Below are positions 1 through 8,612 of a stretch of 64,000 nucleotides of DNA, piece after piece. The first letter of the stretch is position 1, and each line of letters begins with the position of its first letter. A program made the translations under genes and the position numbers. Where the stretch lies: NCBI GenBank assembly GCA_021846985.1, contig JAJZVX010000018.1, positions 297 through 64,296 of the forward strand, in the 5' to 3' direction. Source of the DNA: Acidobacteriota bacterium. Its GTDB lineage: Bacteria > Acidobacteriota > Terriglobia > Terriglobales > Acidobacteriaceae. The notes below the pieces were generated by a model. That model saw only the letters and a program-made list of their open reading frames with translations, was not told the DNA's origin and did not search any database.

Positions 1-1081
1 CGTGATGCGCGCGCACGATCGGCGCCACCGGGTACGGAAAGGCCACCTTCTCCAGAATCTCCGCCCCCACCACCGGGTGGATCTTCATCTTCTCGAACTC
101 TTCCGGGGTCAGCCGCCCGGGCTTGTTGATGATGTGATCCGGCACGGCCAGCTTTCCGATGTCGTGCAGCAGCGCCGCCGCCCGCAGCGCGTCCAGCTCC
201 GTCTCGTTCAGTCCCATGTGTCTGGCGATCTCGACCGCGTAGGTGCGCACGCGGTTCAGATGCGAGTGCGTGGTGTGATCCTTGGCGTCGATGGCCAGGG
301 CCAGCCCCTCGATGGTCCGCAGATGCAGCGCGCACACCTCCTCCACATGCCGCTTCTCCGCCTGCACCTGCTGCTCCTCGATCTCCACCCGCCGCTTCTC
401 GTCTTCCAGGCGCCCCAGGTAAAGCTGGTACGAGCGGTAGATCCAGAACATCACGGGCATCACCAGCAGTGCGCTCTCCCACCCGATAAAGCGCATGGAA
501 AAGTGCACCAATCCCACAAACGCCGCGCCCACCAGATAGAACGGCAAGGACCAGAAATAGGTCTCTGACCAGATTTGACGCAGCGAGAGCCGCGCGCACA
601 GCGCAATCACCACCGCCACCAGGATCGTGTTCATCGCAAAGTAAATCAGACCCACGACAAACAGCTCCAGCGGAAGACTATGCTGCAGCAAAAGAGACGA
701 CCATCTATAGGCGAAGTAAGTACAAAAGATGGCTATACAGTTACTTGAGATATTGAAAATAATTTGTACTGGGGCCGGCTTTTGCTTGGTCTTCCAGAGG
801 CATTGCGTCAGGATGCCAGCCGCCCCAATGATCAGCGTCTCGGCCAGCGATAGCTCCATGATCCCCAGCAGCACAAACAGGAAGTGAACCGACAGGGTGC
901 TTTCCATGCCGGGCAGTCTCACCTTCATGGTCGAGGCCGCCACCGCAATTCCTATATAGCAGATAAACTTAAGCGGATCTTCGGATCTCCACCCCAGGAA
1001 CGCGAACACGAGCGCCGCCACGCCACAGGCGATTACCCCGGCAATATACATTTGGGCGCGATTTGGGATCGAAAGGTCCAT
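1..1081 (-). CDS. Membrane-anchored HD-GYP-type phosphohydrolase (probable c-di-GMP phosphodiesterase), 3' end outside window
   Basis: Manual translation from ATG at 1081: MDLSIPNRAQMYIAGVIACG..., several hydrophobic helices, a coiled coil, then LALAIDAKDHTTHSHLNRV...LLHDIGK...KIHPVVGAEILEK...IVRAHH, the HD-GYP pattern. It is not in the ORF track because it runs off the window; the GYP motif itself is not visible. Confidence 0.88.
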   Translation of the reverse strand, partial: MDLSIPNRAQMYIAGVIACGVAALVFAFLGWRSEDPLKFICYIGIAVAASTMKVRLPGMESTLSVHFLFVLLGIMELSLAETLIIGAAGILTQCLWKTKQKPAPVQIIFNISSNCIAIFCTYFAYRWSSLLLQHSLPLELFVVGLIYFAMNTILVAVVIALCARLSLRQIWSETYFWSLPFYLVGAAFVGLVHFSMRFIGWESALLVMPVMFWIYRSYQLYLGRLEDEKRRVEIEEQQVQAEKRHVEEVCALHLRTIEGLALAIDAKDHTTHSHLNRVRTYAVEIARHMGLNETELDALRAAALLHDIGKLAVPDHIINKPGRLTPEEFEKMKIHPVVGAEILEKVAFPYPVAPIVRAHH

Positions 1082-1685
1082 CGGCTCTCCGCGGAGTATC
1101 CATCCGGGGCATCCTTTAACTTACATCCAGGACTAACTCCATCGCGCAGGCGAAGCGCCCTGCCATGCGGCAAACCCTGCTTGCCGAATCGGCGGGAAAC
1201 CGAAGTAGACCGCCCATACAGCGTCGCACGTGGCGCGATGACTGCCTTGGCCCTGCCTGCGCGGATCTATAAGTTATTCTTTGCTAGACCTGCTCCAGGC
1301 TTTCTTCTCCATCCCTCATCGGCACATCGTGTCTGCTCAATAGAAACAAAGGTGGTATTGGCTCTCACCCATTCATTACCCTCTCCATCCCTGCCGTCAC
1401 ACTGTCGGTTACCCCGGATCACCCAAAAGTTGCAAGCGAGTTTCCTAAGCATTTTCCAACCCTCGCCGAAGTGTTCCTTAACTGCATGAGAAATTGCTCA
1501 TCCGGCGCCTTTTCCCATGCAGTCGGGCCCCTTCAGAGCTTTCGGGTGCCTTCGTATTCGCTCGCCTGCCCTGAAAATCCCGGCTAACCTGCGCCGCTCG
1601 CCCCGCGCTTTCCCAAAGAATCCGCCCGGCGCGTCGACGCGGCGACCCCGGCCAGCTTCCCGGAGACCCGGGAGCGATTGAAGGA

Positions 1686-3506
1686 ATGACTATGACAGAA
1701 CGCAAATCGCTTCGAAGCGCTGTGTGGGGACGTTCCGTCCTCGTCGCAGGCGCACTCCTCCTCTTCGCCAGTGCCGCCTTTGCTGGCGGCCGGGGAAAAA
1801 TGGCCCCTGATCTCGCGCGCAAGAACTCTGCCGATCAGGTCGATATCATCGTGCAGTACAACCAGGCGCCCACCTCAGCCCGCCACCAGAGAACCCTGAG
1901 TCATGGCGGAACCTTCCGGCGCAACTTGCCCTATCTGAGAGCAGGCGTTTACCGTCATGTGCCCGCTTCCGCGCTCACTGAAATCGCCAACTATCCCGAT
2001 GTGGCCCACGTCTCCATCGACCATCGAATTCATGCGGCCGGCAACACGCCCATCCTGCTCGACTACCACAACGAAACCATCGGCACGGCCGCCGCGGGCT
2101 CCTATGGTTTCGATGGCACTGGCGTCGGTGTCGCTATTATCGACAGCGGCCTTTCCTCCGTGGACGATCTTGCCAACGCGCACGTCGTTTACAGTCAGGA
2201 CTTTGTCGGCGACAACGGCGGCAGCGCTACCGACCTTTACGGCCATGGCACCCACGTTGCCGGAATCATCGCCGGCGGCGGCCAGGATTCCACCGGTCCG
2301 CAGGATTCCTACACCTTCAAGGGCATCGCCCCCGGCGTCAATCTCATCAACCTCCGCGCCCTCGACGCCAACGGCGACGGAACGGACAGCAACGTCATTG
2401 CCGCTATTCAAACCGCCATCCAGCTCAAGGATACCTACAACATCCGCATCATCAGCCTCTCGGTGGGACGGGGCGTTTTTGAGAGCTACACGCAGGACCC
2501 GCTCTGCCAGGCTGTCGAACAGGCATGGCAGGCTGGCATCCTCGTCGTTGTCGCCGCCGGAAACGAAGGCCGCAACAACTCCGCCAACAACAACGGCTAT
2601 GGAACCATCACCGCCCCCGGCAACGACCCCTACGTCCTTACCGTCGGCGCCATGAACACCCTGGGAACCGCCGATCGCACCGACGACATTCCCACCAGCT
2701 ACACCTCGCGGGGACCCACGCTCTTTGATCAGGTGGTGAAGCCCGATCTCGTGGCCCCCGGCAACCTGATCGTCTCTCTCTACCGGCCCGCTGAGACGCT
2801 GGTGCAGGAACTGCCGAGCAACATCGTCCCTCTCTCCCTTTATCAACCCAACGGTGGCGCCGTTGCCTCGCCCAGCTACTTCATCCTGAGCGGAACCAGC
2901 ATGGCCACGCCGATGGTGAGCGCCGCGGCGGCACTCATGCTGCAACAGAACCCCAGCCTGACCCCTGATCAGATCAAGGCGCGGCTCATGATTACGGCCT
3001 GGAAAAACTTCATTCCGTACAGCACGGCCACTGATCCCACCACGGGCATCACCTATAACCTCGAAGCTGATCTCTTCACGGTCGGCGCCGGCTACCTCGA
3101 CATCCAGGCGGCCTTGAACGACACCGACCTCGCTCCCGCCACTGCCGGCAGCGCCATGTCTCCCTACGCCTCTATCGACGCCAACGGCAACATCGTCATC
3201 GCCAACCGCAGTTCGTCTGCTAGCTCCATCGTCTGGGGCACCAGCATTGTCTGGGGCACCTCGGGCGTCTGGAGCAACAGCATCGTCTGGGGCACCAGCA
3301 TCGTATGGGGCACCAGCACGACGGGCGAATCCATCGTCTGGGGCACCAACACGCTGGCTCCCGACTCCATCGTCTGGGGCACCAGCATCGTCTGGGGCAC
3401 CGGCACCAGCAGTGGCCAGAGCATCGTCTGGGGCACCGGATCCAGTAGCGGCCAGAGCATCGTCTGGGGCACCGATACGGCCCTTGGCGCAACCGACCTT
3501 CCGTAG
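1686..3506 (+). CDS. Secreted S8 (subtilisin/AprX-like) serine peptidase with C-terminal tandem SIVWGT repeats
   Basis: Signal peptide and I9-like prodomain. Catalytic triad motifs GVAIIDSG, YGHGTHVAG and SGTSMATP; oxyanion motif VVAAGN. Confidence 0.95.
   Translation: MTMTERKSLRSAVWGRSVLVAGALLLFASAAFAGGRGKMAPDLARKNSADQVDIIVQYNQAPTSARHQRTLSHGGTFRRNLPYLRAGVYRHVPASALTEIANYPDVAHVSIDHRIHAAGNTPILLDYHNETIGTAAAGSYGFDGTGVGVAIIDSGLSSVDDLANAHVVYSQDFVGDNGGSATDLYGHGTHVAGIIAGGGQDSTGPQDSYTFKGIAPGVNLINLRALDANGDGTDSNVIAAIQTAIQLKDTYNIRIISLSVGRGVFESYTQDPLCQAVEQAWQAGILVVVAAGNEGRNNSANNNGYGTITAPGNDPYVLTVGAMNTLGTADRTDDIPTSYTSRGPTLFDQVVKPDLVAPGNLIVSLYRPAETLVQELPSNIVPLSLYQPNGGAVASPSYFILSGTSMATPMVSAAAALMLQQNPSLTPDQIKARLMITAWKNFIPYSTATDPTTGITYNLEADLFTVGAGYLDIQAALNDTDLAPATAGSAMSPYASIDANGNIVIANRSSSASSIVWGTSIVWGTSGVWSNSIVWGTSIVWGTSTTGESIVWGTNTLAPDSIVWGTSIVWGTGTSSGQSIVWGTGSSSGQSIVWGTDTALGATDLP
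3225..3473 (+). repeat. Coding tandem repeat: 9 exact SIVWGT hexapeptides plus 1 degenerate (SGVWSN), with short S/T/G-rich spacers
   Basis: Read directly from the translation. DNA unit is (tcc/agc)at(c/t)gt(c/a)tggggcacc, with synonymous variation. Confidence 0.97.
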
Positions 3507-3525
3507 CCCACCTTACCCCGTAGGC

Positions 3526-3562
3526 GAAGGGCCGGCCGCGTCAACAGCGCGGCCGGCCTTTC
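3526..3562 (+). terminator. Probable intrinsic terminator after the S8 gene
   Basis: GAAGGGCCGGCCGCG-tcaacag-CGCGGCCGGCCTTTC, a 15-bp stem (one G-U pair) ending in a short T run. Confidence 0.7.
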
Positions 3563-3690
3563 GTAGGACTCCCGAATCTCCGCTCCACATCCTGCCGCTT
3601 TGTTGCTATCCTCTACTCTTGCTCCCGTCGGCAGGCTCTTTCGGCCCGCTGTTGTTTGCGCGCCGCTGTCGACACATCGCCAGAAGAGAG

Positions 3691-5091
3691 ATGCAAGCCG
3701 ACCCATCCCGCTCCGGTTCCGCGCTGCCCGGTCTCCCTCCGCACCCGGATGCCGGCCCATTCCGCCTCCTCGACACCATCGCCGAAACTGGGCATGGCAT
3801 CCTCTACCGCGCCGAACGCGCCCACGACTTCACCCAGGCCGTCGCCGTCAAACTTCCGCGCCTCCAACCGTCTGACGGCGCCGTTGCGCTCCAGGCCGCC
3901 ACCGACCGCCTGCGCGACGAACAGCGCTCTCTCGCCCCGCTCCAGCACCCCGCCATCGCCGCTCTCGTCGATGCCTCCTTTGATGCCCGGCCCCTGCCCT
4001 GGCTAGCCGTCGAATACATCGAGGGTCTGCCCCTCGACCGGTATTGCGCACTCGAGCGCCTCGGCCTGCGCCAGCGCATCGCGCTGGTCTGCGCCGTTCT
4101 TGCCGCCCTGGATCACGCCCACCAGCGCCTCGTGGTGCACGGCGATCTGAACTTCAGCCGCATCCTCATTGACCGCGACGGCCTTCCCCATCTTGTTGGT
4201 TTCCGGCCCTCTCGCGAACTGCTGCACCCTCCCGGCGCTGAGGATCTTTCATTTGTCTCTCCCGAGAGCCTGGCCGGCCAGCCGCTTACCACTGCGACCG
4301 ACATCTATACCGCCGGTCTCCTGCTCTGCCTTCTGCTCACCGGCAAGCATCCTTTCGAGCAAGATCGCGGCGACTCCCGGCGCTGGGCTCACGCCATTCT
4401 CTGTTTGCCTCCTGCACGGCCCAGCTCGCTTTGCTCCGGCGCTCTCGGCCGCAGCGTTCGCGGCGATCTCGACGCCATCCTCCTGCGCGCGTTGGCCCCG
4501 CTCCCCGCCGCCCGCTACGCCACTGCCGGCGCCTTTGCCGAGGATCTGCAGGCCTTTCTCCACGGCCTGCCCGTGGAAGCACGCAACGGAGGTCCGCTCT
4601 ACCGGCTGCGGCGCTTTGCCGCGCGCAACCGGTTGCTATCCTCCGCCGCTGCGCTTCTCCTGCTCGTGCTTCTTGCTTCCGCGGCCGTGGTGGCTCGCCA
4701 GGGCATCCAGGCCCGCCGCGCCCGCATCCAGGCGCAGGCCCGCCTCCACGACATGCAGCGCCTCACCGGATCTCTCCTCGGGCAGTTCTCTTCCGATCTC
4801 GACCGTCTTCCGGGTTCCGCACCCGTTGAGAATCTCCTCCTTGCGCGCGCCGGCCAAACCATGGATCAGCTCGCCCGGCAGGCCGGCAACGACGCTGTTC
4901 TTCGTCAGGAGATCGCCCGGGAGTATCTGCGCCTGGGCCAGCTGCTGCTGCGTGAGGGCGATGCCGCCGCGGCGCAGGCCGCGGCGCGCAAGGGCCTTGA
5001 CGTCCTGCAGCCTCTGCCCGCCTCGCGGCGCGCCGCCGCGCCTGTCCAGGGCATTGCCGAGCAACTCGTCCGGCTGCGTGATGGCCGCTGA
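3691..5091 (+). CDS. Ser/Thr kinase-like pseudokinase with TM helix and short TPR-like tail
   Basis: ATG at 3691 after AGAAGAGAG. The kinase fold is recognisable (VAVK, VEYIEG, SPE, TDIY), but the Gly loop reads IAETGHG, the catalytic loop HGDLNFSR, and DFG is replaced by VGF. TM segment LLSSAAALLLLVLLASAAVVA. Confidence 0.85.
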   Translation: MQADPSRSGSALPGLPPHPDAGPFRLLDTIAETGHGILYRAERAHDFTQAVAVKLPRLQPSDGAVALQAATDRLRDEQRSLAPLQHPAIAALVDASFDARPLPWLAVEYIEGLPLDRYCALERLGLRQRIALVCAVLAALDHAHQRLVVHGDLNFSRILIDRDGLPHLVGFRPSRELLHPPGAEDLSFVSPESLAGQPLTTATDIYTAGLLLCLLLTGKHPFEQDRGDSRRWAHAILCLPPARPSSLCSGALGRSVRGDLDAILLRALAPLPAARYATAGAFAEDLQAFLHGLPVEARNGGPLYRLRRFAARNRLLSSAAALLLLVLLASAAVVARQGIQARRARIQAQARLHDMQRLTGSLLGQFSSDLDRLPGSAPVENLLLARAGQTMDQLARQAGNDAVLRQEIAREYLRLGQLLLREGDAAAAQAAARKGLDVLQPLPASRRAAAPVQGIAEQLVRLRDGR

Positions 5092-5171: not shown

Positions 5172-7832
5172 TCACTGCCCCCCGTGCAGGCTCCTCAATA
5201 GACTCTCTGCGCCGCGCCGGATTCGCCTTCCGGCCTGCATTCCCAGGATCTTCGTCACCGAAGCCCGCGCCGCCGCCGTCTCATGACAGGCCGCCTGCGC
5301 CCGCGCCAGCGTCAACAAAAACTCCGGATCAGAGCCGTGAATCAGCGCCACGGCCCGCGACGAAAACGCCAGCGCCCGGCGCGGATCGCGCAGGCCCTTG
5401 ACTTGTGCGTCCAGCAGGTACATCGCCGCGCTGTCCAGATCGTCCGGCGAGGCTTCCGCGCTCTGCGCCAGTTGCAGCGAGAGCGCCAGGCCCTTACGCT
5501 CGTGCTCCTCTGCCTGCGCCGTCTGCTTCAGTCGTTCTTCCACACGAGCCCGCGCGATCAGAGTTTCCGCATAGTGCTCCTGCCAGATGCGATTGCCCGG
5601 GTCGCTCCGCAGCGCGGTGGTGAGCACTTCCGTCAGCCGCTCGTAGTCCCGCTGCGCCGCATTCCAATCCGACAGCGCCTCGTGGCTCTCGCCCTCGTCC
5701 AGGTAGATGCTCGCCATGTCCTGCTTCAGGCGCATGTCCAGCGGATCCTTTTCCGCATAAGACCCCATCACCTGCCGCGCCTGTTCCAGTTCCTTCAGGG
5801 ATTCCCTGAACTTGCCTTCGTAAAAATAGCAGTCGCCCAGTTTCTGGCGCACCACGCCCCGCAGCCGCTTGATCGAAACCGGCGCGTTTGGAATGCGCCC
5901 CAGCATCGCCAGCGCCTCTTCATATTGCTTCTGCGCCGTCTCGGGCTGCGCCTCGCTCAGCAGGTTGGCGATCTTGATGTCTCCCAAGGCAATCGACCGC
6001 ACCGCCCGCGTATCCTGCGCGTTCCGCGCCAGCGCCGCCCGGCTTTGCCCGATGGCTCGCTGGTAGTTCTCGATTGCCTTGTCCGTATCCCCAAGGCTCG
6101 ACGCTCCGTGCAATCCATACTCGTCGCCCATCAGCGCATACAGCGTCGCTGCTTCGTGCAAATCGGCGGGCTCGGCCCCTGGCGCGCTCAGCAGCTTTTC
6201 GCAAAGCGCCGCCGCCGCCCGCGCATGGTCCAGCGCCTGCTTCGTCTGCCCGTCGCCAAACTCGATCTCGCTCAGGCTGCGCTGGGCAAACTCCGCGTGC
6301 CGCAGCGCCCGGGCATCGTCCGGATGCAGGCGCAGCGCATCTTCCGCAATCGAAATCGCCCGCTCCACCGAACGGATCGCCTCCGGCGCCTCTCCCAGGT
6401 TGTCCTGGTAAGGACTGCCCATCACGTTGCCCATCCGCGTGTACGCATTCGCCAGGTCGAGCTCAAAGTCGAAATCGCCCCGCGCGTTCTGCGCCATCCC
6501 GTCCAAAAACTCCAGCGCCTCCGCCGCCACTTTGCGTTGCGTCTCCGTTGCTCCCGGCACTTCGCCCAGGCGGTCGTAGAAGTCCGTCACCAGAAATGTC
6601 GCCAGCAGCCGCACATTCCGCATCTCTTCGCGCGCCCGCAGCTCCTCGCCGCGTGCCGTCCTCGCGGCCCGCAGCGAGATGTCCGCGCCGGCCGCCAGCA
6701 CCGCCAGCAGTGCGGCGCCGGCCACCACCCGCTCCCGGTTGCGCCGCAGCAGCTTCCACGCCCGGTAAAGCCGCGCCGTCTTCCGTGCCCGCACCGGCCG
6801 ATGCTCCATCCACCGCTGCAGTTCCGCCGCCAGCTCCGTGACCGTTGCGTAGCGACCCTCCGGCTCGGCGCGCATTGCCTTGCCCGCAATGGCCCGCAGA
6901 TCCTCGTCTTCGATCTCCGCCCAATCCGCGGAGGCTGTCTCTTCGCCGGCCGCGCCGGTTCTGAAGGCGAGTGTTGTCGCCGCCGCTGGAACATGGCCCG
7001 TCAGCAGCCGGTAGAGCGCCACGCCCAGCGAATAAACATCTGACGCCGCCGTGCATGGCTCCCCCCGCCTCTGCTCCGGGCTGGCGTACTGCGGCGTAAA
7101 GGCCGCCATCGGCGCCGCCTGTTCTTCTCCGCCCGCCAGCAGAGTGGCGGCGCCAAAGTCCAGCAGCTTCACTTGCCCATCCGCGGTCACCAGCACATTC
7201 CCGGGCTTCAGGTCGCCGTGCAGAATGCGGTTCCGGTGCGCATAGGCCACCGCGTCACACAGATCCAGGAACAGGCGCGCGATCTCGCGCGCACGCAAGC
7301 CCGCGCGCTCGCAGTATTGGTCCAGCCGCTCGCCGCGGATGTACTCCATCACAAAGTACGGCTCGCCCTCATCGCTCACGCCGCCGTCGAGCAGGCGTGC
7401 AATGTGTGCATGCCGCAGCACCGCCAGCGCCCGCCGCTCCTCCAGGAAGCGCTCCTGCAACTGCGGGGAGTAGAGCCGCGTCCCCACCACCTTCAGCGCC
7501 ACCTGCTCGTCGTCGCCGCCCGCGCCCGAGGCGCGTACGGCCGCGTACACGGCCCCCATTCCGCCGCGCCCAATGAGCGCAACCACCCGGTAGCTGCCCA
7601 GCGTCCTTCCCATGCAGGGATGCGCCGCCGTCTTCCGCGCGCCTTCCGGCGGGCGTTCCACCTCTTGCGCTGAGGCCACCAGCGACAGGACATCCTCAGC
7701 CAGGCTCGCATCCTCGCCGCACCAGGCCCGCACGCTGGCCGTGCGTTCCTCCGCCGTGCCCTCCAGATCCAAAGCGCGGTGAAAGATCTCTTCCACCCGC
7801 CGCCAGCGATCCGCCGCCTCCGCGTCCATCAT
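5172..7832 (-). CDS. Hanks-type Ser/Thr protein kinase with N-terminal helical domain, TM segment and C-terminal TPR-like repeats
   Basis: Intact motifs IGRGGMGAVY, VALK, HGDLKPGN, DFG and TPQYASPE; long alpha-helical repeat C-terminus. Confidence 0.93.
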   Translation of the reverse strand: MMDAEAADRWRRVEEIFHRALDLEGTAEERTASVRAWCGEDASLAEDVLSLVASAQEVERPPEGARKTAAHPCMGRTLGSYRVVALIGRGGMGAVYAAVRASGAGGDDEQVALKVVGTRLYSPQLQERFLEERRALAVLRHAHIARLLDGGVSDEGEPYFVMEYIRGERLDQYCERAGLRAREIARLFLDLCDAVAYAHRNRILHGDLKPGNVLVTADGQVKLLDFGAATLLAGGEEQAAPMAAFTPQYASPEQRRGEPCTAASDVYSLGVALYRLLTGHVPAAATTLAFRTGAAGEETASADWAEIEDEDLRAIAGKAMRAEPEGRYATVTELAAELQRWMEHRPVRARKTARLYRAWKLLRRNRERVVAGAALLAVLAAGADISLRAARTARGEELRAREEMRNVRLLATFLVTDFYDRLGEVPGATETQRKVAAEALEFLDGMAQNARGDFDFELDLANAYTRMGNVMGSPYQDNLGEAPEAIRSVERAISIAEDALRLHPDDARALRHAEFAQRSLSEIEFGDGQTKQALDHARAAAALCEKLLSAPGAEPADLHEAATLYALMGDEYGLHGASSLGDTDKAIENYQRAIGQSRAALARNAQDTRAVRSIALGDIKIANLLSEAQPETAQKQYEEALAMLGRIPNAPVSIKRLRGVVRQKLGDCYFYEGKFRESLKELEQARQVMGSYAEKDPLDMRLKQDMASIYLDEGESHEALSDWNAAQRDYERLTEVLTTALRSDPGNRIWQEHYAETLIARARVEERLKQTAQAEEHERKGLALSLQLAQSAEASPDDLDSAAMYLLDAQVKGLRDPRRALAFSSRAVALIHGSDPEFLLTLARAQAACHETAAARASVTKILGMQAGRRIRRGAESLLRSLHGGQ

Positions 7833-8413
7833 GCCCAGCTCGCCGCACCCGACAATTCCCGGTACAGCCAGCTCCGCGCAAAGCGCAGGTCCCGCTCCGC
7901 GGTCGCCGTTGAAATTCCCAGCGCCTCCGCCGCTTCTCCGGTCGTAAAGGACAGAAAAAAGCGCATCTCAATCAGCCGCGCCTTCCGCGCATCCACGGCC
8001 TCCAGCCGCTCCAGTGCCCGGTTCAGGTCCACGATCCGCTCCGCCTCCGCCCCGATGAACGCCATGTCGTCGGAAAGTTCCATGCGGATCCACTCGCTCC
8101 CTCCGCGGTGCTTGGCCAGCCGCGCCCGCGCATAATCCGTAAGGATGTTGCGCATCAGCATGGCTGCAAACGTATAGAAGTGTTCGCGGTCGTTCCAGCT
8201 TGCTTTCTTCTGCCGCACCAGGCGCAGATACACCTCGTTCAGCAGCGCCGTTGGTTGCAGCGTATGGTCCTCCCGCTCGCGGCGCATCAGCCCCATGGCA
8301 ATCCGGTGCAGTTGTTCGTAGATCAGCGGAGCCAGGCTCTCGAAGGCCGCGGCATCGCCCTCGTGCCAGCGTTGCAGCAGTTGGGTAATTTCACCTTGCT
8401 TTTCTGGACTCAT
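7829..8413 (-). CDS. ECF sigma factor of the kinase-associated type (TIGR02999/ECF43-like)
   Basis: MSPEKQGEITQLLQRW...DHTLQPTALLNEVYLRL...HFYTFAAMLMRNILTDYAR...KHRGG. Its stop overlaps the kinase ATG (ATGA). Start placed at ATG 8413 rather than 8557. Confidence 0.93.
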   Translation of the reverse strand: MSPEKQGEITQLLQRWHEGDAAAFESLAPLIYEQLHRIAMGLMRREREDHTLQPTALLNEVYLRLVRQKKASWNDREHFYTFAAMLMRNILTDYARARLAKHRGGSEWIRMELSDDMAFIGAEAERIVDLNRALERLEAVDARKARLIEMRFFLSFTTGEAAEALGISTATAERDLRFARSWLYRELSGAASWA

Positions 8414-8612
8414 GGCGGGGTTTTGAGTGCCTTTAGTATGCAGGAATCCGGCTGGCCTTGCCAAAGCCTTTGTTGCGGCTTGCTTCCCTTTGACCAAAAA
8501 CCTCTTCCCCGTGAGGGAGTTTTCCCGCTTTTGCCGCTGTACTGGGCAAACGGCCACGCCGCCACCCCCGGCGGCGAGGCGTCAACGTCAGGCGCTGGGA
8601 GTGAGAAATCAC

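Follow-up and report, generated by a model that had tools for sequence, protein, structure and literature searches.

Trp-Gly repeats at the end of a secreted subtilase

We analyzed a 64,000-nucleotide stretch of an Acidobacteriota genome (contig JAJZVX010000018.1, positions 297 to 64,296; here called the window), which carries a gene for a secreted S8 subtilase whose C-terminal tail is built of short, nearly identical peptides centered on Trp-Gly (the WG repeat). Such a tail is a hallmark of a large family of subtilases from Acidobacteriota, mainly Terriglobia. The repeats are conserved family-wide, keep fixed periods, are under purifying selection at the peptide level, and belong to genes with conserved synteny. 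The reading we favor, with a probability of roughly 40%, is that the tail remains attached as a Trp-laddered stalk, similar to a β-solenoid or β-roll, that acts in adhesion or oligomerization beside a peptide importer.

The array of the window protein (83 residues) reads, with spacers in parentheses, SIVWGT, SIVWGT, SGVWSN, SIVWGT, SIVWGT, (STTGE), SIVWGT, (NTLAPD), SIVWGT, SIVWGT, (GTSSGQ), SIVWGT, (GSSSGQ), SIVWGT. The Trp-to-Trp spacings are 6, 6, 6, 6, 11, 12, 6, 12, and 12 residues, with 8 WG-to-WG intervals. The initial annotation, made from the DNA alone, had reported nine exact SIVWGT copies and one SGVWSN separated by variable spacers, and this was correct to the base. Ten of the 13 Trp residues of the protein fall inside the array, which otherwise contains mainly Ser (17), Gly (15), Thr (13), Val (10), and Ile (9), with one Pro and no Lys or Arg. 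Tandem Repeats Finder identified periods of 18 nucleotides (11.9 copies) and 36 nucleotides, and none of 10,000 shuffles of the tail residues contained any hexapeptide three or more times. A search across the whole window revealed no second such array. The repeat DNA also yields long shadow open reading frames (ORFs), a minus-strand "PQTM" repeat at 3164-3760 and a plus-strand "SSGAP" repeat at 3247-5091; the latter artificially lengthens the ORF of the downstream kinase gene, whose start is most likely the ATG at 3691.

The protease to which the array is joined is intact, and its earlier description as a complete secreted S8 enzyme held up. The Peptidase_S8 profile (PF00082) scored 178.7 bits against a cutoff of 21.8 (E value, 2e-52), which places the protein in the S8 family, and the catalytic triad and oxyanion Asn (D153, H187, S405, and N293, corresponding to subtilisin BPN′ positions 32, 64, 221, and 155) are invariant in 70 homologues. 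The N terminus is signal-like, with a helix at residues 13 to 31 of low to medium predicted local distance difference test score (pLDDT) in an AlphaFold2 (AF2) model and no lipobox Cys. The nearest solved catalytic domains are those of PDB entries 9ues and 3afg (Tk-SP type; E value, 5e-41). The best NCBIfam match, the type VII secretion mycosin family TIGR03921, reached 147.8 bits, under its equivalog cutoff of 278.75.

A family of acidobacterial subtilases with WG tails

The 120 best database homologues are 54 to 63% identical to the window protein over ~83 to 100% of its length, and nearly all of them end in a tail of this kind. Their sources are Terriglobales and Terracidiphilus metagenome-assembled genomes, and their annotations go no further than "S8 family peptidase" or "AprX." When one genome per species was scanned, at least 580 related loci were detected, of which 80 were kept; these are all from Acidobacteriota (Terriglobales, Bryobacterales, Solibacter, Sulfotelmatobacter, and others) except for one bin labelled Verrucomicrobiia. 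WG arrays also end the proteins of the genome loci (~70). Since the closest database protein is 63% identical, the lineage of the window is poorly sampled in the protein collections used.

The family unit is x-Φ-Φ-W-G-[T/S/G/N], where Φ is a hydrophobic residue, and each tail carries 5 to 13 copies. Among 121 proteins, the unit consensus is [D/S/T/E]-[S/..]-[I/V]-[L/V/I/M]-W-G-[T/S]; Gly directly follows Trp in 874 of 918 cases, and WG-to-WG distances of 6 (192 times) or 12 (311 times) make up 67% of 754. More distant members mostly carry unbroken hexapeptides, such as NSVVWG (10 copies), SNALWG (8 copies), or TSAVWG (11 copies), indicating that the basic unit has six residues and that the "12-mer" is one unit plus a degenerate one. 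The proposed pattern of a kept xVWG core with varying copy number and spacers was thus borne out by the homologues, in which neither W nor G varies.

A profile built from three 12-residue units was searched against 1.84 billion representative proteins and gave 226 matches, in which the recognizable domain was always S8. Scanning of 20 nonobvious matches for other catalytic domains gave S8 or nothing. The profile also matched other acidobacterial S8 clades (33 to 51% identical to the window enzyme) whose tails are of the types DNIIWGT, PNAIIWGHRSTAVD, or SQLWGNSRFNSD. Three matches (P0138, P0193, and P0263) are standalone proteins of 130 to 155 amino acids consisting of a signal peptide and WG repeats, which indicates that the module needs no fused protease. 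Many DNIVWGT-type S8 proteins (P0130, P0140, P0143, P0159, P0166, P0223, and P0236) carry an acidic, Pro-rich stretch after the repeats that ends in ...GGG[L/F/I] or ...GG[V/P][L/F]; this end, absent from the window protein, may be an unrecognized C-terminal signal.

The repeat of the window type has no entry in Pfam, NCBIfam, or the PDB sequences, whether the full protein or six isolated tails are searched, and a full-text literature search that included the motif strings NIVWGT, SIVWGT, and ILWGT returned no paper on it. The kind of enzyme is known, while the repeat module is undescribed and its mode of evolution is unusual.

In the best eight metagenome runs (mine drainage, hot spring, and sediment), 72 to 100% of sampled 31-mers from window positions 1500 to 3600 were present, pointing to an acid- or heat-tolerant acidobacterium. 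The tail is identical across these populations. Array copy-number variation, sought in four metagenome populations, was not found; a single synonymous single-nucleotide polymorphism was the only variant.

Purifying selection on the repeated peptide

All seven-residue units within each of 71 genes were compared codon by codon. The pooled proportion of synonymous differences (pS) was 0.64 and that of nonsynonymous differences (pN) was 0.19, with pS exceeding pN in 70 of the 71 genes. By position, pN was 0.46, 0.33, 0.12, 0.14, 0, 0, and 0.29, the two hydrophobic positions having 0.12 and 0.14 and Trp and Gly having 0; pS was 0.58 to 0.73. The array of locus L049 is an example: its nine NSVVWGN units are written in scrambled codons (GTT/GTA/GTC/GTG, GGT/GGC/GGA, AAC/AAT, and TCG/TCC/TCA). 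Purifying selection thus acts on the units at the peptide level throughout the family.

The window gene is exceptional. Its copies differ synonymously only slightly (a single att, a single gta, and either tcc or agc for Ser), and its pS of 0.14 is not above its pN of 0.16, so that recent DNA duplication or conversion is indistinguishable from peptide selection on the basis of this gene alone; its copies are young at the DNA level. The initial annotation had argued from the codons of the window gene that the peptide rather than the DNA is conserved, which is right for the family but does not follow from the window gene itself.

In tails of the 12-residue type, the 7-residue core is 93% identical within a protein compared to 37% for the 5 spacer residues, and 65% of spacings are exactly 12. 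Spacer length is thus kept though spacer sequence drifts, which speaks for a structured array over a simple string of units. Between proteins the units differ: below 75% catalytic identity, only ~1% of protein pairs share their dominant unit, and switches of all copies occur even at ~91% catalytic identity (VIIWGT × 7 versus MVLWGS × 7; AVLWGT × 10 versus MILWGT × 10). Two forces act on the arrays, namely, whole-array turnover or conversion and long-term purifying selection for sameness. In a comparison of loci L093 and L094, the secreted protease is the fastest-evolving gene of its cluster (N-terminal and catalytic regions, 73% identical; tail, 46%); the ABC transporter components are 78 to 85% identical and the HD/GAF/GGDEF protein is 76% identical.

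Structural hints in the tail

The array has a positional architecture. In 33 of 86 12-type tails, the second unit is an odd one of the S-A-V-W-G-D/N type, whose counterpart in the window protein is SGVWSN at position 3, and the ending G[ED][NQK] recurs in 54 of 175 tails. In the sister DNIVWGT clades, the spacers of 33 of 139 proteins follow the pattern WG-x-x-C-x4-5-C-[D/G]-N-Φ-Φ-WG with a fixed period of 14, and these look like disulfide-stapled turns between successive units or strands.

A 14-residue WG variant, P0131, is matched by the 12-mer profile with an E value of 3.5e-14. Its tail in turn matches the heads of YadA-type adhesins (BpaC 7o23, E value of 1.4e-10; YadA 1p9h, E value of 6e-3; range to 6e-2) and scores above the gathering threshold of the ice-binding left-handed β-roll family PF21300 (LbR_Ice_bind; 32.2 versus 30 bits). 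The pure NSVVWG array of L049 gave a weak match (E value, 1.7e-3) to LpxD, an acyltransferase of the left-handed β-helix (LbH) type.

Other candidate folds were rejected. Matches of a DNIIWGT tail to WD40 and AlgG were borderline and are regarded as compositional. An outer membrane β-barrel was considered because of the aromatic end of the standalone WG proteins; for this family, units of 6 residues are too short for it, and the window protein has ...TDLP at its end. The GGxGxDxUx nonapeptides of RTX calcium-binding β-rolls are absent, with no Pfam match, and so is the motif of choline-binding repeats.

The window tail has no Cys. Elsewhere in the family, the hexapeptide-type tails (P0014, P0017, P0032, P0038, P0051, P0063, and relatives) carry a single positionally conserved Cys in a unit S-V-C-W-G, and one Cys of the catalytic domain is nearly invariant (DPLC motif; C274 in the window protein, 2505-2507). 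A disulfide from the tail to the catalytic domain, or one between molecules, is conceivable.

Gene neighborhood of the WG-tailed proteases

In three homologue contigs, the gene order is permease, permease, SBP_bac_5 binding protein, ATPase, S8-WG protease, and HD/GAF/GGDEF protein, and two further contigs repeat the order from permease to HD/GAF/GGDEF. Within 8 kb of the protease gene at 88 loci (87 plus the window), the HD/GAF/GGDEF protein is encoded at 61, the window among them, and ATP-binding cassette (ABC) transporter genes are found at 31 to 34. The ABC system belongs to the nickel/peptide/opine (PepT-type) group, with no equivalog assignment. Genes for radical-SAM, YcaO, P450, methyltransferase, or cyclase enzymes were absent from the conserved neighbors on the homologue contigs.

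The window itself begins within this neighborhood. The truncated MASE9 and HD protein at its start is 63% identical to the neighbor of the protease at locus L005, and its full-length counterpart is the HD/GAF/GGDEF protein. The same divergent layout is found at L007, L008, L011, L019, L041, and other loci, where an ABC importer operon lies just beyond, so the window was probably cut before that operon.

The DNIVWGT-type clade shows a different context: the genes for the standalone WG proteins P0138, P0193, and P0263 and the S8-fused P0137 all lie directly upstream of a GNAT (Acetyltransf_3) gene (L087, 848-1312; L088, 313-711; L089, 1755-2150; L092, 8001-10262), which in the annotated contig L092 is followed by a queuosine synthesis gene. 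Because of this shared position, the standalone proteins, which have no adjacent protease, look like positional equivalents of the protease gene minus the protease. One database protein, P0192, runs from WG repeats into a GNAT domain and is probably a read-through into the neighboring gene.

A proposed attached stalk as the best explanation

Family-wide conservation, fixed spacing, purifying selection at every unit position, and positional architecture together argue for an attached, structured tail, as do the Cys-stapled spacers of period 14, the β-roll matches of P0131, the NSVVWG-LbH match, the standalone WG proteins, and the synteny. We propose that the array stays on the mature enzyme and folds, perhaps only upon self-association or ligand binding, into a β-solenoid or β-roll stack. 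Each unit would supply a short strand and a Gly turn, so that identical residues would align as ladders, among them a ladder of surface Trp. Such a sticky stalk could hold the protease on a surface, be it the cell's own envelope, exopolysaccharide, or a particulate substrate, so that peptides would arise in the vicinity of the co-encoded peptide/nickel-type ABC importer, which might take them up. The neighboring MASE9/HD-GYP/GAF/GGDEF protein would tie the system to control by cyclic di-GMP (c-di-GMP) and hence to biofilm formation.

A number of observations weigh against this explanation. Two AF2 models were made, one of the window protein with its mixed 6/12 tail (70-sequence alignment) and one of P0063, whose hexapeptide-type tail is positionally conserved (67 sequences). 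In both, the propeptide and the catalytic domain were modeled well, while the tails had pLDDT values of 23 to 43 (28 to 43 for the window array) and no secondary structure. Canonical solenoids are usually predicted well, and a monomeric one is therefore not supported by these models. In PDB and Pfam, neither the window tail nor the 12-mer profile nor the regular 12-mer tail of P0004 had a match, which makes the link of window-type tails to β-rolls transitive and indirect, and one drawn between low-complexity repeats. The restriction of the repeat to S8 peptidases or to proteins of its own, among the 226 profile matches, is unusual for a generic anchor. Finally, Φ-Φ-W|G resembles a favorable cleavage site for subtilisins, and a tail left exposed might not withstand the active subtilase that bears it.

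Both the YadA head and the LbH domain are obligately trimeric, which offers a possible reason why monomer prediction fails. The β-solenoid or cross-β attachment suggested in the initial annotation drew indirect support from the fixed spacings, the Cys spacers, and the matches of the 14-residue variant, but not from the structure prediction it had called for, which gave no fold in either run. The stalk explanation and those that follow are not fully exclusive, and a folded tail may still be trimmed.

Alternative explanations

The strongest alternative, which we consider possible but doubtful, is that the tail is a tethered substrate of its own enzyme, or a C-terminal pro-region, which the active site would cut after each Trp following export. 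The x-Φ-Φ-W segment would occupy P4 to P1 and Gly P1′, with SIVWGTSIVWGT as the corresponding candidate cleavage substrate; the array would act as a competitive pseudosubstrate or as a timer for latency, secretion, or release, and the fragments would be by-products, possibly scavenged by the ABC importer. Many secreted subtilases trim C-terminal extensions (aqualysin, Epr, and Vpr). The repeat occurs exclusively with S8 domains (clades 33 to 65% identical) or alone, and the tail is predicted to be nonglobular and would thus be accessible. The Gly at the floor of S1 (equivalent to BPN′ 166) is present in 156 of 157 proteins, with Ser in the remaining one, compatible with a large P1 residue. If all units faced a single active site, their sameness within a protein and their difference between species would be explained.

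We also determined, for each of 228 variable catalytic columns, the mutual information with the residue that dominates repeat position −3 (the would-be P4). The equivalents of BPN′ 97 and 126, which form the S4/S2 wall, ranked 3rd and 4th, and the pairs are size complementary: Gly at −3 goes with Met or Phe 126, Val or Ile with Val 126, and Phe or Leu with Gly 97. However, this covariation amounts to ~3 independent events with exceptions (Ser at −3 with Val 126) and the ranks ignore phylogeny, so that it is only suggestive. Self-cleavage leaves the fixed periods of 6, 12, and 14, the Cys-stapled spacers, the odd unit, and the C-terminal cap motif unexplained, does not fit the standalone WG proteins that lack an adjacent protease, and offers no clear reason why selection should keep 6 to 13 exact copies that are merely degraded. 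Self-cleavage followed by uptake of the pieces through the co-encoded ABC importer is possible, with weak support from the S4-pocket covariation.

It is rather unlikely that the tail is a disordered chain of Φ-Φ-W stickers and S/T/G/N spacers, cohesive or cross-β/amyloid-like, that concentrates the protease in a matrix. The lack of a fold in AF2 would suit such a chain, as would a composition rich in β-branched and aromatic residues with almost no Pro and no Lys or Arg, which favors β-aggregation by the rules that separate elastin-like from amyloid-like composition; abutting hexapeptides may also resemble steric-zipper segments. Stickers, however, should tolerate mixed IVW, ILW, and VLW units, whereas the units are 93% identical, and the Cys-stapled turns and β-roll family matches favor a specific fold. 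A RHIM-type amyloid, raised in the initial annotation, does not agree with the sequence: the (I/V)-Q-(I/V/L/C)-G tetrad is absent, the units read I-V-W-G with no Gln, and the tail has no Pfam match.

We regard as unlikely the idea that the tail is a multicopy peptide precursor fused to its own processing protease. Identical hexa- to dodecapeptides would be released, taken up by the adjacent PepT-type ABC importer, and used as bioactive peptides or as a signal, read for instance by the GAF domain of the HD-GYP/GGDEF enzyme. Synonymous divergence is saturated, yet the units of a protein stay exactly identical (L049, L055, and L042), all copies switch in a coordinated, pherotype-like manner between ~91% identical relatives, genes for an SBP_bac_5 ABC importer and a c-di-GMP enzyme with a GAF domain lie in conserved synteny, and the tail is predicted to be unstructured, all in keeping with released peptides. 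Against this, the binding protein does not co-diversify with the repeat flavor: between an AVLWGT genome and an MILWGT genome it is 83% identical compared to 46% for the tail, and it is among the best-conserved genes of the cluster. The importer is also of the nickel/peptide/opine type with no equivalog, and the structural hints given above (periods, Cys spacers, and β-roll matches) count against release as well.

The initial annotation had placed this idea among ribosomally made peptides that are modified posttranslationally. That framing is not upheld, since the conserved neighborhood lacks the tailoring enzymes named above and the units, which often abut, have no conserved flanking recognition or cleavage sequences. 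Nor does the likeness to cyanobactin PatA/PatG extend to the enzyme (TIGR03895, 43.3 bits versus 421) or to the array, where spacers are 37% identical and units abut; and Peptidase_S8 is the sole domain found, unlike in borosin- or BURP-type fusions. It is likewise improbable that this diderm phylum has in the locus a self-contained peptide-to-c-di-GMP cassette whose "pherotypes" (SIVWGT, DGILWGT, EAVLWGT, NSVVWG, and others) are specific to each species.

Functionless, neutral expansion by replication slippage, with which the near identity of the window copies at the DNA level (pS, 0.14; pN, 0.16) would agree, is effectively refuted by the family-level codon test, in which pS (0.64) far exceeds pN (0.19) in 70 of 71 genes and W and G are invariant, and has very little probability left given a tail kept at no fewer than 580 loci from several orders and unchanged in the mine-drainage, hot-spring, and sediment populations.

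Comparison with known systems

Among known repeats, the heads of YadA-like adhesins (Hep_Hag; PDB 1p9h, 7o23, 3wp8, and 3s6l) share with WG tails an N/S-x-Φ-Φ-Φ-G strand-turn motif (NSVAIG compared to NSVVWG or DNIVWG), short extracellular repeats in very regular arrays, and an adhesive role, which for the WG tail is a proposal. They differ in that the window array has a period of 6/12 rather than 14, has Trp before Gly, is attached to a protease, and lacks a stalk or membrane anchor. The ice-binding β-roll of the grass Lolium (PF21300) is a 14- to 15-residue (2 × 7) roll with flat ladders and the same within-protein sameness as WG tails. The window tail does not match it, however; it contains Trp rather than the Thr, Ser, or Val ladders of ice binding, and the protease context is unrelated. 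For left-handed β-rolls of both kinds, a coil of two 7-residue halves with an N-x-Φ-x-Φ-G motif would be expected.

The LbH hexapeptide repeat (PF00132; LpxA, LpxD, and γ-carbonic anhydrase), which folds as a triangular prism, has the six-residue period and a hydrophobic residue before Gly, and its pattern [LIV]-G-x-x-[STAV]-x accommodates W-G-N-S-V-V. Nevertheless, a pure hexapeptide relative scored 7.6 bits with PF00132, under the cutoff of 27, the window tail had no Pfam match at an E value of ≤10, AF2 builds no LbH, and many WG tails have a 12-residue period. LbH domains are not known to place a Trp at each of their inward positions.

The lactococcal protease PrtP provides a functional analogue. 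PrtP is an S8 subtilase held at the cell surface by its C-terminal region, and an Opp/SBP_bac_5-type importer takes up its products; the gene for the WG-tailed protease is likewise syntenic with an SBP_bac_5-type importer. PrtP has large PA, A, and B domains and an LPXTG/sortase anchor in a Gram-positive wall, whereas the present cell is diderm, the protein has no known anchor signal, and its surface retention is presumed.

Multicopy precursors cut by S8 proteases include PatE with PatA/PatG, α-factor with Kex2, and Phr with subtilisin/Epr/Vpr and Opp. Like the WG tail, they combine short identical peptides in tandem with variable spacers and an S8 protease, and Phr also shares the uptake of the Opp type. 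In the WG proteins, by contrast, a single polypeptide would be both precursor and protease, there are no conserved recognition or dibasic sites, and heterocyclase, macrocyclase, and tailoring genes are not found nearby. Tk-SP-type subtilases (3afg and 9ues) share the S8 domain, N-terminal propeptide, and C-terminal extension; their extension forms a globular β-jelly-roll domain instead of a Trp-Gly repeat of short period.

Acidobacteriota rank with the most abundant soil bacteria and with the least characterized, and their extracellular proteases drive nitrogen turnover. The WG repeat is a previously undescribed family that marks hundreds of their secreted subtilases, and its evolutionary signature, exact sameness within a protein through saturated synonymous change combined with coordinated switches between close relatives, is unusual. 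If the tail is a Trp-laddered β-roll, it would be a new minimal scaffold for adhesion or oligomerization and a test case of AlphaFold failure; if it is cut off, it would represent a novel way to keep a protease latent or, the most striking possibility, a signaling system in which enzyme and precursor are fused.

Features of the window gene and its flanks

The features of the protease gene and its immediate flanks are listed in Table 1.

Table 1. Features of the WG-tailed subtilase gene and adjacent sequences (window coordinates)
Feature	Position	Strand	Details
Partial gene for MASE9 and HD(-GYP)-type membrane protein, divergent, running off the window start	2..1081	-	Pfam MASE9, HD, HD_5
Complete secreted S8 subtilase gene with WG-repeat tail	1686..3506	+	606 aa plus stop; ORF list, Pfam, full-length homologues 55-62% identical
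Putative Sec-type signal peptide, aa 1-33, ending AFA|GG	1686..1784	+	Assigned by inspection
Predicted N-terminal propeptide, aa ~34-125, I9-like β-α-β-β-α-β	1785..2060	+	Boundaries approximate; from AF2, no Pfam match
Peptidase_S8 catalytic domain, aa 144-446	2115..3023	+	Pfam, E value 2e-52
Catalytic residues	D153 2142-2144; H187 2244-2246; oxyanion N293 2562-2564; S405 2898-2900	+	Family alignment
Subtilase fold end and conserved linker (FTVGAGYLD…SP.A..D.NGN.V)	3024..3224	+	Kept in homologue alignments
WG-repeat array, 9 × SIVWGT and 1 × SGVWSN	3225..3473	+	Codons 514-596
Acidic ten-residue C-terminal end, DTALGATDLP	3474..3503	+	Sequence
Terminator-like GC-rich stem-loop followed by UUUCG, 20 nucleotides past the stop	3526..3562	+	RNA folding

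In the AF2 model, the propeptide consists of strands at residues 51 to 58, 76 to 81, 86 to 93, and 106 to 111 and helices at 64 to 71 and 94 to 101, all with pLDDT of >90, and the linker before the repeats is predicted to form a β-hairpin (strands 494 to 497 and 503 to 506). The DTALGATDLP end contains no transmembrane helix or hydrophobic segment and no sorting signal known to Pfam or NCBIfam. PEP-CTERM, LPXTG, type IX secretion system C-terminal domain, and autotransporter barrel were all excluded, as no profile matched and the end lacks a hydrophobic helix.

The hairpin after the stop codon, missed by a simple T-run terminator scan, has a predicted energy of −40.4 kcal/mol (z score, −5.4), and none of 200 shuffles was equally stable. 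This terminator-like structure suggests that the gene ends its own transcript.

Downstream lie two Ser/Thr kinase genes at 3691-5091 (plus strand) and 5172-7832 (minus strand), the second with TPR repeats, and a gene for an extracytoplasmic function (ECF)-type sigma factor at 7829-8557 (minus strand) that overlaps the second kinase gene by 4 nucleotides. This kinase/kinase/ECF set is a common acidobacterial signaling trio and lies outside the conserved protease cluster.

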